A stretch of 29,366 nucleotides of DNA from a virus (lineage: Duplodnaviria; Caudoviricetes), in IMG/VR virus record IMGVR_UViG_3300027798_000161, positions 1 through 29,366 of that record; one strand, 5' to 3'. The notes under the pieces were generated by a model that saw only the letters and a list, made by a program, of their open reading frames with translations, had not been told where the DNA came from and did not search any database. This document shows positions 8,938-21,320 of this stretch, piece by piece. Numbering within the stretch: the stretch's first letter is position 1; the number at the start of each line of letters is the position of its first letter. Position numbers and translations under genes: made by a program.

Positions 8938-9909
8938 TTATACTATTGATAAGATTCCTAAATTGTTCCAAATTGCACCCGTTGGAAGACCTACGGGGGA
9001 GGTTGGAAGGTTTCCAAATATTACTTTTCCGTTTGTTGTTTCGATTGCTCGGAAGTCAGCAGCGGCAATTAAATTTGGATTGATATATAGTCCTCTAGTA
9101 ATTCCGTTCGCACCGCCCGTTTGGTTGATGGTAGGCGTCATTGACAATTGCGTCCAAGTTGCCGTGCCACTTGTTGGTGCAAATCCAATAGGCAAAGACA
9201 TAAATACATTTGTACCGCTTGTATTCGCGTTAGGCAAAGTTGAATTTGTTGTAAATCTGTGAACCGTAGTTGAAGAAAAAACGCTTTGGTAATTCAATGA
9301 ATTATCTGAAATGCTATTAAATATTCTAGTGTTATTACCTCCAAATCTTACATTGTTGTCAACTGATGGAGTGCCTATTGTTAAATCACTAACTCTAGCA
9401 GTCCCGTTCACATCTAACTTATATCCCGCATCGGTTGTTGTGTTGATGAGTACGTTACCCGTTAAACCTTTTAAAACTAAAGATGTTGAATTAGCAACTC
9501 CATTTCTATTTTGTTTAAAAATATAGTCGGAATCTTGACGTGAATTAATAAAATTAAAATGTGAATTTGCTCCAGGTGTATTGTAAAAATTCATTGCACC
9601 ACTTGCTACTGCGAAAGTAATTTCAGAACCTACAACGTGTAATTTTGTACTTGGGGTACTTGTACCTATTCCTAAAAATCCATTCGTGTTATCCCAGTAC
9701 AATGAAGAGCTACCTGTAAGCTTTCCTAATGAATCAGAGAAAGATACCATACCTGTAGTAAGTATAGATGATGCTCCTTGTAATAAATTATTAGTAGCTC
9801 CATCTCCTATATATACTCTTTTCGTATCTGTAGTGAATAACAATTCACCTGCAATACCTGTAGGTAGATTTACTTGTAAGCCTCTTTTTATTTGTAATGT
9901 ATTAGGCAT
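8938..9909 (-). CDS. Tail fibre / receptor-binding protein
   Basis: N-terminal QIKRG...GELLFTTDTKRVYIGDG module; LGIGTSTPSTKLHVVG and INTTTDAGYKLDVNG fibre repeats; Gly/Thr/Asn-rich. Confidence 0.75.
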   Translation of the reverse strand: MPNTLQIKRGLQVNLPTGIAGELLFTTDTKRVYIGDGATNNLLQGASSILTTGMVSFSDSLGKLTGSSSLYWDNTNGFLGIGTSTPSTKLHVVGSEITFAVASGAMNFYNTPGANSHFNFINSRQDSDYIFKQNRNGVANSTSLVLKGLTGNVLINTTTDAGYKLDVNGTARVSDLTIGTPSVDNNVRFGGNNTRIFNSISDNSLNYQSVFSSTTVHRFTTNSTLPNANTSGTNVFMSLPIGFAPTSGTATWTQLSMTPTINQTGGANGITRGLYINPNLIAAADFRAIETTNGKVIFGNLPTSPVGLPTGAIWNNLGILSIV

Positions 9910-10420
9910 GTTTGTTAGCTATTAATTTACACAAATTTACGAATTCTTCTTGAGTATAACTTTGCTTCATATAGTTGACTTGCTTTATGACAAGCTGAAC
10001 ATTATCTAGTGTATAATCTAAATCACTATTTATTCTGTCCATGCTCATGTCAAAAGTATCTTCATCTATTTTCATAGCCGAACCACTTAATGCGCATAGT
10101 CCATTTTGTTTATTATACAATTCTATGAATTCTTCGTAAGTAATTTTAAATTCTTTATCTCTAGTAAGAGCACCTGCCCTCCATGTTTTATACAATCTTG
10201 TTGTGTGGAATGAAAATGGATCGTTAAGTCTTTTCTTAGTCTTTCTTCCAAACATAGCGGCTTTTGCCTTATCGGAAGTCCCCCTTCTGCCTATCTTAAT
10301 TCCTTGTTGCTTCATTTTAAGATAGAAACCCCCAACACTATACCCTTCCATTTTTGCTATGTCTTTAACAAGTAGATTAGGATCTGTTAAGTCATATTTA
10401 CTTAAATCAATTGTCTTCAT
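9902..10420 (-). CDS. Free-standing HNH/His-Me finger endonuclease-like protein
   Basis: QNGLCALSG...SMDRINSDLDYTLDNVQLV...NYMK motif; overlaps both neighbouring genes. Confidence 0.7.
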   Translation of the reverse strand: MKTIDLSKYDLTDPNLLVKDIAKMEGYSVGGFYLKMKQQGIKIGRRGTSDKAKAAMFGRKTKKRLNDPFSFHTTRLYKTWRAGALTRDKEFKITYEEFIELYNKQNGLCALSGSAMKIDEDTFDMSMDRINSDLDYTLDNVQLVIKQVNYMKQSYTQEEFVNLCKLIANKHA

Positions 10421-13378: not shown

Positions 13379-13605
13379 TCCTCAATTATAAACGCAATGA
13401 ATGACACAATAGTTGCCTGAATGAAATCACCGGTGATGATCCATGTGGACCATAAGCTCATGCATTTCCAACAACCAAGTCCGGCATGAATGTAGTTGAC
13501 CAAGTGATTTGGTTTGATTCGCATTGCCAATCCATCCCATATCATTTGCAGTGGCTCAAAGGATACCAGGAACCAACTGAGTGCGAGTGAAGCTAAATAA
13601 GTCAT
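13357..13605 (-). CDS. Small membrane protein with CxxC (DUF1360-like)
   Basis: Hydrophobic segments flanking CWKCMSLW. Confidence 0.55.
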   Translation of the reverse strand: MTYLASLALSWFLVSFEPLQMIWDGLAMRIKPNHLVNYIHAGLGCWKCMSLWSTWIITGDFIQATIVSFIAFIIEECLAKLK

Positions 13606-13937
13606 ATCTTTAATTTTTCAATATACAAGGTTGCATCCATCAATTCATCCTGGAGATGATTCAACCAATCAATCAAAGGTAAGTAATTATTCTCCAATGT
13701 GGTACCATATTTTTTAATTCCCATCTCGGAACGTTCATAATACTTGGTTATGACCTTCATTACGATTGGATCGGTGTTGATTGGTTTCTCCTCAGGGATG
13801 ATTTCCACTTCCTCAAGCATTGCACCAAATGTTCTCAGCTCTTCAGCAAAGATTTGCTTGGTATTTGAATTAATCTCATTCATCATTATCTCCATAAAGT
13901 CATATAAGTTTTGGAGCTCTTTGTTAGTTTTTTTCAT
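13602..13937 (-). CDS. Putative all-alpha NTP pyrophosphohydrolase (MazG-like)
   Basis: KKYGTTL...WLNHLQDELMDATLY motif. Confidence 0.5.
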   Translation of the reverse strand: MKKTNKELQNLYDFMEIMMNEINSNTKQIFAEELRTFGAMLEEVEIIPEEKPINTDPIVMKVITKYYERSEMGIKKYGTTLENNYLPLIDWLNHLQDELMDATLYIEKLKI

Positions 13938-13938
13938 C

Positions 13939-14133
13939 TCAATTCATTTGACATTTAACTTCATCGAATGCAGCTGCATCCACTTCATCGATATATACCT
14001 CATCATCTTCCATCGTTAACACAATGCAATAATTGACATTCATCCCACTGAACACATCCTGAAACCGGTTGATGATCATGTGTGGATTCTCATTCTTGGT
14101 GCCAACATAGGCAATGAAGTATCTATCTCTCAT
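13939..14133 (-). CDS. Hypothetical protein
   Basis: ATG 14133 (MRDRYFIAYVG...) overlaps the end of the upstream gene. Confidence 0.6.
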   Translation of the reverse strand: MRDRYFIAYVGTKNENPHMIINRFQDVFSGMNVNYCIVLTMEDDEVYIDEVDAAAFDEVKCQMN

Positions 14134-14332
14134 AATACTTGAAAAATTTGATGTAGAACTCCTCATTCACTGGATGACCTTTCAAGAATCTCCACAACTG
14201 AAGATAAGTGATTCCCATGTCCTCAGCGATATGAGCTAATTTGTATCTCTTGGATACCCGTGACCTCACCTCTCTATCGATGAAGTCACGAATGGTTTCC
14301 CCATCAGAAAGGTGAATCGTCAAAGCTCTCAT
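14123..14332 (-). CDS. XRE/Cro-like HTH DNA-binding protein
   Basis: LAHIAEDMGITYLQLWRFLKG helix-turn-helix pattern. Confidence 0.6.
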   Translation of the reverse strand: MRALTIHLSDGETIRDFIDREVRSRVSKRYKLAHIAEDMGITYLQLWRFLKGHPVNEEFYIKFFKYYER

Positions 14333-14606
14333 CAACTACCGGCATTGAGTTAATATTCCACACATCCAAAGTATTGTAATACTTCCCGTTGTATTCTCTT
14401 CCTCTCAGATTGAATTTCACTGTGATATCGATACCAGGTGAATACTCATCCAACATTTTACACTTGTCTTGAGCTAATTGGAATGAGATGTCCTGAGGAT
14501 ACTCTCCATTTGGTACTGTAAGGACGAACATTCTCACTGAGAACTTGTCGCTGATTTGTTTGATTGGCTCAATTACTTTGATTGTGCCTGTTACTGATAA
14601 TTCCAT
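14304..14606 (-). CDS. DUF3127 family protein (OB-fold, SSB-like)
   Basis: EYPQDISFQL and VKFNLRGREYNGKYYNTLDVW motifs; acidic tail DDSPF. Confidence 0.85.
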   Translation of the reverse strand: MELSVTGTIKVIEPIKQISDKFSVRMFVLTVPNGEYPQDISFQLAQDKCKMLDEYSPGIDITVKFNLRGREYNGKYYNTLDVWNINSMPVVDESFDDSPF

Positions 14607-14627
14607 ATTTGATTTAATTGTTTACGT

Positions 14628-14732
14628 TTAAAATGCTCCGCTGAATACTTGTGAAGCTATCATTGTCATTACTGCAATTATAATTATCGTTATGATTGTC
14701 ATTCCGATTATTGCAATCGTTTTCTCTTTCAT
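14628..14732 (-). CDS. 34-aa single-pass membrane peptide; starts in the last array repeat
   Basis: Hand-translated MKEKTIAIIGMTIITIIIIAVMTMIASQVFSGAF. Confidence 0.6.
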   Translation of the reverse strand: MKEKTIAIIGMTIITIIIIAVMTMIASQVFSGAF

Positions 14733-14887
14733 TGTTCTTGTTGTTTAAGTTCTTCTAATTCTTGTTCTTTTTGTAATTTTAATTCTTGTAGGCCTTCAAT
14801 AACTTTTTTCAAACGCCTAATCTCAAATTCTTCAAATGTTAAAGTATTATCAAAATATTCAATGCTAAGAGATTCTACTGTTTTCAT
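14729..14887 (-). CDS. Cassette ORF, 52 aa coiled-coil-like, ends KQQEQ
   Basis: Hand-translated MKTVESLSIEYFDNTLTFEEFEIRRLKKVIEGLQELKLQKEQELEELKQQEQ; fills one repeat-to-repeat unit exactly. Confidence 0.75.
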   Translation of the reverse strand: MKTVESLSIEYFDNTLTFEEFEIRRLKKVIEGLQELKLQKEQELEELKQQEQ

Positions 14888-15096
14888 TGTTCTTGTTGGT
14901 TTAAAATGTCAAGTTCTTTTCTGACTGATTTCCAATACAATCTGTCTTCTGGGTAGTGTAGGCAATCACTTTCAATAATTGTATCTACTGCTACTTGTGC
15001 TGATAATATAGCGTTATCACATTCTCTGCAATTAAAATTAAATTTATCTACTAATTCTTTTGCTTGTTCTTTTGTTGTTAATTGTTTCTCTTTCAT
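14884..15096 (-). CDS. Cassette ORF, 70 aa, ends NQQEQ; homolog of 21141-21320
   Basis: KEQAKELVDKF...AVD...YWKSVRKEL pattern. Confidence 0.75.
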   Translation of the reverse strand: MKEKQLTTKEQAKELVDKFNFNCRECDNAILSAQVAVDTIIESDCLHYPEDRLYWKSVRKELDILNQQEQ

Positions 15097-15374
15097 TGTT
15101 CTTGTTGTTTAGTTTCAATTCGTTTTTTATACCCATTACAAATATCAAGAATGAAATCCATTCTATCTTCTTCAGAATCGAATCCAGTCATCATTTCATC
15201 TAATGTATCTTTTAAAATAGCAACTTGACTTTCAATTGATTCGTGTTTTTGTCTTTTATCAATTTTTTCTGCTTGTTCAAATATTTGGTCAAAGGTCATA
15301 TTTTCATACCAATACTCATCGCACATTAATTTCTCTTTAATATACTCTACTGCTGATAATTTTTCTTTTTTCAT
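15093..15374 (-). CDS. Cassette ORF, 93 aa, ends KQQEQ
   Basis: SAVEY...FEQAEK resembles TAVEW...IQQAKE of the neighbouring cassette. Confidence 0.75.
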   Translation of the reverse strand: MKKEKLSAVEYIKEKLMCDEYWYENMTFDQIFEQAEKIDKRQKHESIESQVAILKDTLDEMMTGFDSEEDRMDFILDICNGYKKRIETKQQEQ

Positions 15375-15595
15375 TGTTCTTGTTGTTTAAATGTTTCGTT
15401 GTAGTAATGTTCTGTGTTAAGAAATGCAGTTAGTACATCTAAATCTTTTGCTTTGTCTAAACATTTTCTTGCAAAATCAATATTCTGGTTCTTTTCCATT
15501 TCTTTGGCTTGTTGTATATGAAATCTAAAATCGGGAGTACAATTCTCTATACCTCCAAAATGCTCATTAATCAACCATTCTACTGCTGTCTTCAT
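15371..15595 (-). CDS. Cassette ORF, 74 aa (MKTAVEWL type), ends KQQEQ
   Basis: Bounded by repeats at both ends. Confidence 0.75.
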   Translation of the reverse strand: MKTAVEWLINEHFGGIENCTPDFRFHIQQAKEMEKNQNIDFARKCLDKAKDLDVLTAFLNTEHYYNETFKQQEQ

Positions 15596-15750
15596 TGTTC
15601 TTGTTGTTTAAATTTTACTTTTAACTTTCTTAATATTCTACCATCTTTAGTGGCTTTATTTGCGTGAAATGTACAATACCATTTGCATTCAAAATATTGG
15701 CTATTTGTTATTGTTGAATTTCTTGTGCAATTTTTATGTTCGCATTTCAT
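15592..15750 (-). CDS. Cassette ORF, 52 aa putative zinc finger, ends KQQEQ
   Basis: Hand-translated MKCEHKNCTRNSTITNSQYFECKWYCTFHANKATKDGRILRKLKVKFKQQEQ. Confidence 0.7.
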   Translation of the reverse strand: MKCEHKNCTRNSTITNSQYFECKWYCTFHANKATKDGRILRKLKVKFKQQEQ

Positions 15751-16034
15751 TGTTCTTGTTGTTTAGTTATAATTTCATGTTTAACTCCAAATTTATCATA
15801 GGTAGTGATTGTAGCATCTCCAACTCTTATTTTTGGTTCATTAGGTTCATCAACTATTCTAAATGATTCTTCGTTTTCTTTCCACTCGTCTACTATCTCA
15901 AGGTTACCACTGAATACATATCCAATTGCTCTCAAAAGTCCTTCTACCATTTGTAACGCTTCGTCAAGGTCAACATCGTTGAATGGGACTTCATGTGTCA
16001 CTGTGTGTTCGTATTGTTCGATTGTTATTTTCAT
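15747..16034 (-). CDS. First ORF of the array, 95 aa, ends KQQEQ
   Basis: ATGA-coupled to the exonuclease; repeat at its 3' end only. Confidence 0.75.
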   Translation of the reverse strand: MKITIEQYEHTVTHEVPFNDVDLDEALQMVEGLLRAIGYVFSGNLEIVDEWKENEESFRIVDEPNEPKIRVGDATITTYDKFGVKHEIITKQQEQ

Positions 16035-16648
16035 TTCGCTTCCAATAATTTATAATACTCATTATAATACTCAGTACACAATTCCAATCTCTCAACCATC
16101 TCTTGCTCCTTCGCTTCATCACGATCAAAAGAAAGTACGGTGATTCTCTTCTCCGGTGCGATGTGGTCAACGCGGTGTATATCTAAGTTCTCCCACTCGT
16201 TCAGTAGTTCGTTGGATGTAGTTACCATGCAATATATTAATTCTGCCTTAGGTCGGTCATATAACCTCATGTAAGCTCTCAACTGCCACTCATATATTGT
16301 ATCATATCCATCCTCTGCCATCACTGGAAAGGTATCCAATGACCAGGATGTTTTGATGTCGATTATTGAATCATTAGTGATGATATCACATTCACCGGTC
16401 ATCAGCTCGTCAACCATTCGCACAGTGTTCTTGATGTATCCATCGAATCGCACAGTATTAAGCAGGTCAATTGAGTCCTGCTCTTGCATCAATCCTTTTT
16501 GGATGTACTTATTGTTGATTTCACTTCGGTAACCGTAAAAATTCTCCTTTGCAATCTGCTTGATGTAACTCTTCGCAGTTGCTCCCATTTCATTCTTGCC
16601 TCGGCCATTGGTCATCAACTTGCCGATGGAGGATGGATGCCACTTCAT
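16031..16648 (-). CDS. YqaJ/lambda exonuclease-like PD-(D/E)xK nuclease
   Basis: PSSIGKLM, KG...E, GECD...IDIKTSW and YEWQLRAYM motifs. Confidence 0.8.
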   Translation of the reverse strand: MKWHPSSIGKLMTNGRGKNEMGATAKSYIKQIAKENFYGYRSEINNKYIQKGLMQEQDSIDLLNTVRFDGYIKNTVRMVDELMTGECDIITNDSIIDIKTSWSLDTFPVMAEDGYDTIYEWQLRAYMRLYDRPKAELIYCMVTTSNELLNEWENLDIHRVDHIAPEKRITVLSFDRDEAKEQEMVERLELCTEYYNEYYKLLEAK

Positions 16649-17166
16649 ACTTCTAATGCTTTAAGTTGTACCTCAGTCAATGACCATTTCTCAATCAATT
16701 GCTCCTTTGTATACTTTCCTGCACTAATGGATGCCACTGCGGATTCAAATCTCGCATTGTCAAGAGCAGGTTTCACCGGATTGACTGCAATCGATGCTGC
16801 CTTTCCATCATCATCCACTGCCTGAAGTGAAAGAAGTGATTGCAATGTACCTCTTCGGAAGTAAGTAACCGCACTAAGTACCTTTTGTGGATCCGTTATA
16901 ATCGGCAAGGTCATGAATGATTCAACCATTTCACCTGAATCGATATCAATAATGCGAGTCACTACATCGGTACCAATCACCGGCTGAAGCAATATCAAAC
17001 CATTCTCCAATAAGATTGGCTCAACTGCGGTAAGCAATGCATTGATATCGGCATACGACTTTTTGAAATGTGGATTAGTGGCGTTCTTCGCTACCTTTCC
17101 GATTTGCTGTTTAGCAAGATGCAACTTTTTGTACAGAGTTGATACTGTTTGTTCTTGTTTTTCCAT
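16645..17166 (-). CDS. ERF-family single-strand annealing protein
   Basis: NPHFKKSYAD and SAVTYFRR...DDDG signature. Confidence 0.85.
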   Translation of the reverse strand: MEKQEQTVSTLYKKLHLAKQQIGKVAKNATNPHFKKSYADINALLTAVEPILLENGLILLQPVIGTDVVTRIIDIDSGEMVESFMTLPIITDPQKVLSAVTYFRRGTLQSLLSLQAVDDDGKAASIAVNPVKPALDNARFESAVASISAGKYTKEQLIEKWSLTEVQLKALEV

Positions 17167-17188
17167 TATTTAGCGTGTTAATTTTCAA

Positions 17189-17218
17189 TAAAGATAATAA
17201 ACTATTTTAGATTGGCAA
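17189..17218 (-). promoter_or_regulatory. Host-type promoter TTG-N19-TATCTTTA for the recombination operon
   Basis: Near-consensus Bacteroidota -33/-7 with 19-nt spacer upstream of ERF. Confidence 0.5.
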
Positions 17219-17660
17219 TAAAATTATCATAAAATTCGATGAAATCATCAAAAGTTCGAGAGATATAGTACACTCCTCCAGCATCTTCAATCATTTGTTG
17301 ATATACTTTTTGTGCATCTGATTGCCTATCCTTCCCATACTTCACCTCAATCTTGACTGAGCGACCTCGAATGGTTGCCGAGATATCTGCGGAACCTGGT
17401 GTTCCCGTTCCCTTTGTCCATTGTCCTCCCATCTCCACTCCATCAGTACGGTACTTTTTGCGATATAATCCCATCGTATTGATTCGCTCTGCTTGACATC
17501 CACTCATCTGAAGGAATCCACATATGGATTTGGTGAGTGCGTTTGCTGAGTTATCTTGCCAATTAGTTAGAAAGCTATCCACATATGGCAACTTTGGATA
17601 CTTCGCTCGTGTGAGAGCTCTTTCGAGGTCTTTGATTCGTTCTTTGTTTTGTTTTGTCAT
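17202..17660 (-). CDS. VRR-NUC-like nuclease / putative junction resolvase
   Basis: PGSADI...IEVK...RQSDAQ...AGG motif. Confidence 0.75.
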   Translation of the reverse strand: MTKQNKERIKDLERALTRAKYPKLPYVDSFLTNWQDNSANALTKSICGFLQMSGCQAERINTMGLYRKKYRTDGVEMGGQWTKGTGTPGSADISATIRGRSVKIEVKYGKDRQSDAQKVYQQMIEDAGGVYYISRTFDDFIEFYDNFIANLK

Positions 17661-21043: not shown

Positions 21044-21144
21044 AGCGACACTAATTTAATGATGATTAATACTGCTGCGATACCAAGGCTCAATGCAATT
21101 CCAAGCATCGATGCTTCATGGTTTTCTTTTCTTTTGTAGCTCAT
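21031..21144 (-). CDS. 37-aa membrane peptide
   Basis: Hand-translated MSYKRKENHEASMLGIALSLGIAAVLIIIKLVSLCIS. Confidence 0.55.
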   Translation of the reverse strand: MSYKRKENHEASMLGIALSLGIAAVLIIIKLVSLCIS

Positions 21145-21320
21145 AATTTTTCGATTTCTTGTTTAACTTCATTCCAATAATATACCATAGATTCAACGCA
21201 AGTATGAAGGCACTCATCAACTGCAATTAATGCACATTTTTTAATTGGAGTATAGGTAATAGTATTTACTGTTTTATTGTACTTATCAAATAATTCTTTT
21301 GCTTTTTCTTTTGGTGTCAT
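21141..21320 (-). CDS. 59-aa protein (MTPKEKAKEL type); homolog of cassette 14884-15096
   Basis: Hand-translated; ATGA overlaps at both ends. Confidence 0.7.
   Translation of the reverse strand: MTPKEKAKELFDKYNKTVNTITYTPIKKCALIAVDECLHTCVESMVYYWNEVKQEIEKL

Follow-up and report, generated by a model that had tools for sequence, protein, structure and literature searches.

A short joint, conserved at the DNA level, at which phage mini-genes appear to be exchanged

Introduction

Integrons combine rows of single-gene units with an IntI-type tyrosine recombinase and a folded attC site. Among arrangements described in phages, the PeSL cassettes of the T4-type phages phi1 and RB49 undergo insertions, deletions, and replacements at their repeats without an integrase (Arbiol et al. 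2010; PMC2839356). In the sections of that paper cited here, the exchange is ascribed to homologous recombination and likewise compared with integrons, the PeSLs are described as having a sigma70 promoter, a stem-loop terminator, and a Shine-Dalgarno sequence, and mini-circles are demonstrated. A more general proposal concerns linker or boundary sequences, that is, short conserved sequences at module edges that allow in-register exchange between phages (Botstein 1980, through PMC2839356; PMC3029335), and the passages of PMC3029335 used here state that most mosaic boundaries lack recognizable sequences of this kind. The SAS of Cluster K mycobacteriophages (Pope et al. 2011; PMC3203893) has a Shine-Dalgarno core and is nearly confined to one cluster; according to the parts of that paper on which we draw, it sometimes includes an upstream stop, and no recombination role is given for it there. 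Erf/exonuclease-type pairs, for their part, drive phage mosaicism on short or diverged homology, as stated in the cited portion of PMC3945230.

Whether phage mosaicism arises through targeted exchange at conserved linkers or through random joining and selection is a long-standing question. Here, we analyze a row of mini-genes in a phage genome of 29,366 nucleotides (IMG/VR virus record IMGVR_UViG_3300027798_000161), the whole of which we call the window. An original prediction, made from the letters of the window, saw in the 20-bp repeat between these genes an integrase-free, integron-like way of shuffling them. We find that this repeat, referred to below as joint A, is real, widespread, and tied to gene exchange.

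The array and its setting

The window is the complete genome of a small tailed phage (29 kb, with a 148-nt terminal repeat at 98% and a completeness of 100%), in which family matches identify terminase, portal, tape measure, and endolysin genes. Its best-matching metagenome run is from freshwater and may be the sample of origin, and blastn against cultured phages gave weak matches only (E 0.4). The host was probably a member of the Bacteroidota, because Flavobacterium phage elemoA has an exact copy of the 15-base TAVEW block discussed below, in addition to small genes that are arranged in a row and have A-rich joints of a related kind. Two + strand genes at 344-1583 have no family match, the rest of the genome being read on the - strand, and an endonuclease-like gene at 9902-10420 (PHROG endonuclease/HNH matches), which lies in a low-GC stretch near the terminase, is possibly a homing endonuclease.

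The array is on the - strand, as are the genes that flank it. Directly upstream, on its left (16031-17166), are the genes for an Erf single-strand annealing protein, a candidate recombinase (16645-17166; PF04404, matched by Pfam and PHROG), and for an exonuclease that is its candidate partner (16031-16648; PHROG match to phrog_5715), and on the right is a DUF3127/single-strand binding protein (SSB) gene (14304-14606; Pfam and PHROG, phrog_4932). The first array gene (15747-16034) encodes a 95-aa protein of the KITIEQ family with a weak phrog_935 match; it has no joint upstream, and its C-termini are many and different among relatives. It is followed by cassette genes of 52 aa (15592-15750), 74 aa (15371-15595, TAVEW/AKEMEK family), 93 aa (15093-15374), 70 aa (14884-15096, KEKA type, with a weak phrog_21441 match), and 52 aa (14729-14887), and the last gene (14628-14732) encodes a 34-aa hydrophobic peptide with a GAF end, which is the usual right-hand anchor in relatives. 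A paralog of the 70-aa gene, also matching phrog_21441 (83% over 42 nt), lies at 21141-21320 in a second region of small genes, which lacks the joint.

As predicted, joint A is present in five exact copies on the - strand (copies 1 to 4 at 15746-15765, 15591-15610, 15370-15389, and 15092-15111, and copy 6 at 14728-14747) and in one with two mismatches (18/20; copy 5, 14883-14902), while shuffled sequences had a mean of 0.02 matches and none of 100 reached six. Copy 2 continues into the TAVEW block, and copies 4 and 6 have the 27 identical bases ascribed to them (ending at 15111 and 14747), the other 14 pairs sharing 16-24. The predicted units of 155, 209, 278, 221, and 155 bp hold one ORF each, six ORFs end in (K/N)QQEQ with a TGA that overlaps the next ATG, and the suspected AT-richness is borne out: the GC content of 14728-15765 is 28.3%, lower than in any other of 567 stretches of equal length, and that of the remaining genome is 39.5%. 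The view that these ORFs are mostly unrelated needs to be qualified, as 15371-15595 is a member of a large TAVEW family and 15093-15374 is chimeric, its two halves being found separately in TAVEW-type genes.

In one frame, joint A reads TAA ACA ACA AGA ACA ATG; in another, its last codons are CAA TGA. Thus, two of the three incoming frames are terminated, and the next ATG is supplied. The coupling of TGA to ATG holds in the window array and is not general, since at 183 exact sites the upstream ORF ended at the TGA of the motif in 83 cases and at its first TAA in 33, read through in 3, and was not found in 64 (some loci being short). The joint has no hairpin: 70-nt folds at all six copies, on both strands, were no stronger than -3.8 kcal/mol. 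Across 120 unique QQEQ ends with their stop, glutamine is encoded by CAA in 360 of 360 cases and glutamate by GAA in 119 of 120, against 15% CAG and 21% GAG elsewhere in the same ORFs, and 115 of these ends finish in ATGA. The ends from loci that were not picked by motif agree in codons (20/20), as do the FKSE ends of the second joint described below (13/13), and near-fixed codons are also found in TAVEW and AKEMEK (ACA, 142/148; GCC, 83/89). To judge from these codons, what is conserved at the joint is the DNA.

Distribution of the joint and of its genes

A search for the 20-mer in phage and metagenomic records, proposed with the original prediction, gave exact copies in about 530 IMG/VR stretches, a number estimated from 15 of the 64 parts of the stored stretches. 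The carriers range from small phages to a 174-kb genome (G001), which has 23 copies within two mismatches, on one strand throughout and nearly all clustered; the matched part of its terminase has no BLASTP similarity to that of the window (E 5.0). In bacterial and archaeal genomes, there were 25 matches to joint A, each of them single within its fetched locus. Genes that begin at joint A or joint B encode 477 proteins, which make up 297 families (224 with a single member), and joints also head ordinary genes, including those for thioredoxin, an MT-A70 methyltransferase, Thy1, and HNH (L004, L300, L327, and L342).

None of the seven array proteins has a Pfam or PADLOC match, and their two weak PHROG matches are of unknown function. 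A Pfam scan that covered 145 of the 254 family representatives of at least 45 aa left 134 without a match, and six passed the curated cut-off (DUF3127, thioredoxin, MT-A70, Thy1, DUF7695, and HNH_3); these six look like ordinary genes behind a joint. At L149:7035-7550 and in L154, a joint-headed gene continues in frame through the SSB gene, and the resulting DUF3127 ORF is extended at its N-terminus. In the cultured phage elemoA (L278:4990-5700, MT497017.1), a TAVEW gene is accompanied by related A-rich joints and genes end in FKK; the elemo isolates span 59.7 to 61.7 kb.

Gene content and order at the locus

Close relatives do not carry the same genes in the same order. Among loci with exonuclease and SSB genes at least 87% and 85% identical, respectively, over their full length, the interval between the two genes varies from 125 to 1,801 bp over 23 distinct intervals (window included; a few share gene content), in which joint A occurs 0-6 times and joint B 0-5 times. 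For instance, one relative (L185) with an exonuclease 99.5% identical to that of the window has an interval of 288 bp with two genes. The last two units of the window, the gene at 14884-15096 and the one after it, are in reverse order in L139/L195 and likewise in metagenome run X19, and another order swap distinguishes L410 from L411.

Four of the five window units were found bounded by joints at both sides in other contexts. The unit at 15591-15765 runs from motif to motif in a foreign context in L438 (184 nt, 92.9%), that at 15092-15389 from joint to joint inside longer foreign contigs (X3, record 21, with 0 differences; X11, record 2, with 1), and those at 14882-15114 and 14727-14905 are joint-bounded in L448 (94%) and in another phage, L446 (98.9%), respectively; the fifth, with the TAVEW gene, has matches in halves only. 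Homologues of the cassette gene at 15592-15750 have joint B in L439 and neither joint in L441 and L443. Eleven joint-to-joint indels were detected, of which three were self-comparisons and were dropped. Among the eight that remain, the cleanest are one of 440 nt (L042/L095), between flanks that are 99.1% identical over 323 nt and 99.4% over 315, and one of 482 nt (L023/L089), and several have one flank that is short or only 84-95% identical.

Cassettes are also found across lineages. G001 has 247 nt at 94% in common with a 10-kb locus, all other matches being of at most 51 nt; a 65-kb genome (G003) has, as its best match against 20 of the 29 kb of the window, 122 nt at 93%; and G008 (63% complete) has 336 nt at 99% in common with L047, the remaining matches being cassette or joint pieces only. 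Within populations, no deletion was seen in the array, one contig of the best-matching run spanning 14560-16700 without differences, and the assembled contigs of the metagenome runs contained neither circles nor within-population deletions. Contig joints with an undetermined interval were not counted as deletions because other phages with two joints give the same signal.

In L199, the exonuclease is joined directly to the last array gene, and in L185/L133 and L150, the first array gene ends in DEQ or EEQ by way of only the last 8-10 bases of the joint, as if freshly joined at a very short patch. L184 and L137/L220 are the two ends of one 31-kb contig whose versions of the array end and SSB differ by a 351-nt joint-to-joint unit, perhaps representing two strains in one sample. 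At G001:C1:172240-173789 (L408, L001), a 651-nt three-gene unit that starts at a joint is repeated head to tail, with 100% identity over 498 nt to the contig end, and this tandem may be due to unequal crossover, a circle, or an assembly artefact.

Breakpoints at the joint

The breakpoints of gain and loss do not miss the repeat but concentrate at it. They were collected from 142 non-redundant arrays, most of whose loci were fetched by motif, and the counts are phylogenetically non-independent. Out of 204 unique ends of shared DNA, 78 fall within a joint of both partners, 30 within a joint of only one partner, and 96 outside it in both, where 9.6% would be expected from the share of positions that the joint occupies (nominal p 8e-28, the ends not being independent). 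A breakpoint was present at 169 of 175 informative joints, at 24 of 37 plain gene starts (65%), and at 31 of 427 mid-gene positions, and the excess of joints over plain starts has a nominal p of 2e-7. Because breaks are frequent at plain gene starts too, part of this signal is explained by exchanges surviving at gene boundaries. Among recurring classes, 59 of 64 upstream and 59 of 63 downstream switch partner at the joint, while controls 600-1,000 bases away gave 2/8, 1/7, 5/10, 0/5, 2/5, and 1/4. The joint is found at both ends, with foreign flanks, in 23 of 96 two-ended shared segments. As for the 96 ends outside the joint, 20 are at AKEMEK, 14 at TAVE, 19 at the array end, 6 at the start of the first gene, and 37 elsewhere, and breakpoint ends are spread over tens of bases.

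A second joint and recombination within genes

Joint B (TTTAAATCAGAATAAGATG), at which the gene ends in FKSE, was found in about 330 IMG/VR stretches. Twelve pairs share a gene end but continue with joint A in one member and with joint B in the other, the switch falling at a common patch of about 10 bases; on this comparison, joints A and B are at least two interchangeable joints.

The idea of atomic, whole-gene cassettes did not hold, as genes also break at internal AKEMEK blocks (20 of 21 informative blocks have a breakpoint) and at shorter patches. Both blocks of the window are conserved as DNA and lie on the - strand, that of AKEMEK (15491-15508) being an internal crossover hot spot and that of TAVEW (15575-15589) a secondary crossover patch. 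Proteins of the TAVEW family (276 matches) follow a plan of TAVEWL, front, AKEMEK, back, and YYNETFK, with QQEQ or SE added, and the front and back halves of 15371-15595 are re-paired in relatives. Among 108 parsable TAVEW proteins, a set biased by the query, 53 have a window-like front, with 45 distinct backs, and 7 have a window-like back, 6 of them with other fronts.

In the model of the protein encoded at 15371-15595 (pLDDT 89.5), which consists of a short helix and one long helix, AKEMEK lies inside the long helix, so half swaps would be expected to keep the fold. No fold match for this model reached E 0.001, the TAVEW alignment gave no match to a PHROG (0/108) or to a solved structure (best E 0.039), and in the Atlas, the family appears in unnamed viral clusters only. 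The fixed N-terminal helix on diverse bodies recalls, going by descriptions, the internal proteins of T4, which have only a capsid targeting sequence in common according to the cited part of PMC3012670.

How mini-genes may be exchanged

We consider it likely, with a probability of about 70%, that the joint, a DNA-conserved sequence common to dissimilar phages, is where accessory mini-genes and halves of genes enter, leave, and change their order, probably by homology-driven crossover and not by a site-specific recombinase. Crossover between the joints of two phages by ordinary homologous recombination would add, remove, or reorder mini-genes, with annealing in the window phage probably performed by Erf and the exonuclease. 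The stop in two frames and the A-rich leader would keep the recombinants translatable, and since every additional genome with these letters would be a further recombination partner for the others, the joint may be kept uniform. Both joints probably began as tails of TAVEW-family genes, joint A as that of a tandem family, and would then have been grafted onto other genes via crossovers at shorter patches. That ends scatter and use whatever patch is shared fits homology-driven crossover, and the AKEMEK hot spot and the switching between joints A and B counted for general homology rather than one site.

With regard to the enzymes, the cited part of PMC3945230 indicates that Erf/Exo of phage D3 recombines diverged DNA efficiently, Erf having been assayed on 800-bp substrates, and gives identities of 23-27 nt for Red-beta and 31-34 for RecA. 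Two joints have a median exact identity of 20 nt, below the range for Red-beta, and 20% of joint A pairs reach 23 nt. An Erf match was found in two of five other carriers and in none of G001-G003, in a search for Erf alone among annealing proteins. Because the identity at the joint lies under the Red-beta range and Erf is matched in only two of these five carriers, we can only infer the recombining enzyme. A bolder version, in which freshwater Bacteroidota phages, both small and large, keep the 20 letters as a community-wide connector to plug into a common library of hundreds of mini-genes, with units moving out and back in as circles, a second joint within the long helix recombining halves into new host-takeover proteins, and no integrase taking part, seems doubtful to us.

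An unlikely but better-surviving alternative to homology-driven exchange is that the motif is maintained because it signals a translation start or translational coupling, as SAS may do, and that breakpoints gather there only because exchanges at boundaries survive. According to the cited part of PMC6847099, adenines at -3, -6, -12, and -13 increase translation in F. johnsoniae, and joints A and B both have A at all four positions, as do 4 of the 40 other window genes. The joint is also unstructured, 161 of the 174 exact sites that precede a complete ORF lead into one of 25-150 aa, and plain starts break in 24 of 37 cases, so that a role as an A-rich leader of the Bacteroidota type is plausible by analogy. 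However, the exact 15-mer has a probability of 2.4e-7 under the start profile of those 40 genes, and both joints meet the four-adenine rule with different letters, which means that the rule does not fix the letters; a leader role does not explain the letter-perfect identity of the joint. Nor would it account for the joint at both segment ends with foreign flanks (23/96) or for AKEMEK, which is equally hot and has no start role. It is possible that the joint letters are the binding site of a specific translation factor.

Clearly less probable is an integron-like, site-specific system in which a host recombinase, or an unrecognised one of the phage, cuts the joint and moves the cassettes as circles. 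One gene per unit, order swaps, letter-perfect conservation across lineages, and the joint-bounded 651-nt tandem of G001 (which may be an assembly artefact) would all suit such a system. Nevertheless, the predicted absence of an integrase was upheld, as PF00589 was found in none of five phage genomes (the control detected 14 of 14) and in none of the 50 window ORFs, and the serine recombinase PF07508 was not found in the window. The lack of a stem-loop in the 70-nt folds, the single matches in bacteria (25/25), the switch between joints A and B at a patch of about 10 bases, and the intragenic hot spots argue against it as well.

The two remaining readings are very improbable. A QQEQ tail acting as a protein signal for packaging or stability, with DNA identity following from it, might be seen in the 70 of 477 joint-started proteins and 21 of 120 family homologues that end in QQEQ, but it is largely refuted by the near absence of synonymous codons, and 33 of 183 sites stop at the TAA of the motif without the tail, while the MRRITKS gene has different tails in L195, L158, and L161. 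Mosaics made by chimeric assembly at a repeated word might be suspected, as every comparison rests on metagenomic contigs and one contig contains both versions, L184 and L137, but are unlikely to explain the pattern because 98% of unrelated joint pairs share fewer than 31 exact bases, under the 31-letter words behind the Logan contigs; moreover, in both X3 and X11, divergence of the joint-bounded pieces sets in at the 20-mer edge, and the alternative order is found both in IMG/VR (L139) and in the independent run X19.

Comparison with known systems

A literature search by topic, and not by the letters of the motif, found no description of this joint, and the parts of PMC11375127 and PMC13586616 that we cite contain nothing on such repeats. 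The likeness to integrons, as originally predicted, is limited to the outcome, namely single-gene units that differ in content and order. In contrast to integrons or CALIN, no IntI-type recombinase was found in the five phage genomes, the joint has no attC hairpin, and the units are split internally.

The PeSLs are similar in that a repeated motif lies among small variable genes that are gained and lost at the repeat. In contrast to them, the joint is 20 bp long, unstructured, and partly coding, occurs in phages with dissimilar terminases, and is accompanied by an intragenic hot spot. A terminator scan gave 0 terminators, and there is no Shine-Dalgarno sequence at the joint, the 15 bases before the ATG containing one G. 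A sigma70 scan gave 16 sites against 12.2 +/- 3.6 expected, none of which recurs at the copies; a Bacteroidota promoter pattern has one match, far from the array; and Rfam had 0 matches over 13500-17500.

Like SAS, the joint is an asymmetric repeat in one orientation directly before the ATG of non-structural genes, but it lacks the Shine-Dalgarno core and is not confined to one phage cluster. The window also resembles Red-like systems in encoding Erf and an exonuclease beside the array, whereas PMC3945230 does not demonstrate activity on 20-nt patches and three of five other carriers have no Erf match.

The linkers are also short conserved sequences at mosaic boundaries that are common to different phages, but the present joint is identical in every letter across about 530 records, borders single genes, and provides both a stop and a start. 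One defined 20-mer, with a breakpoint excess over plain starts, links at least 297 protein families across dissimilar phages, and a linker of this kind could pay for itself by supplying the stop and start signal. The new elements are a minimal, partly coding joint found in dissimilar phages, another joint with which it is interchangeable, and a hot spot inside genes; the outcome is like that of the T4 PeSLs and of linkers, and the joint is neither a PeSL nor an integron.
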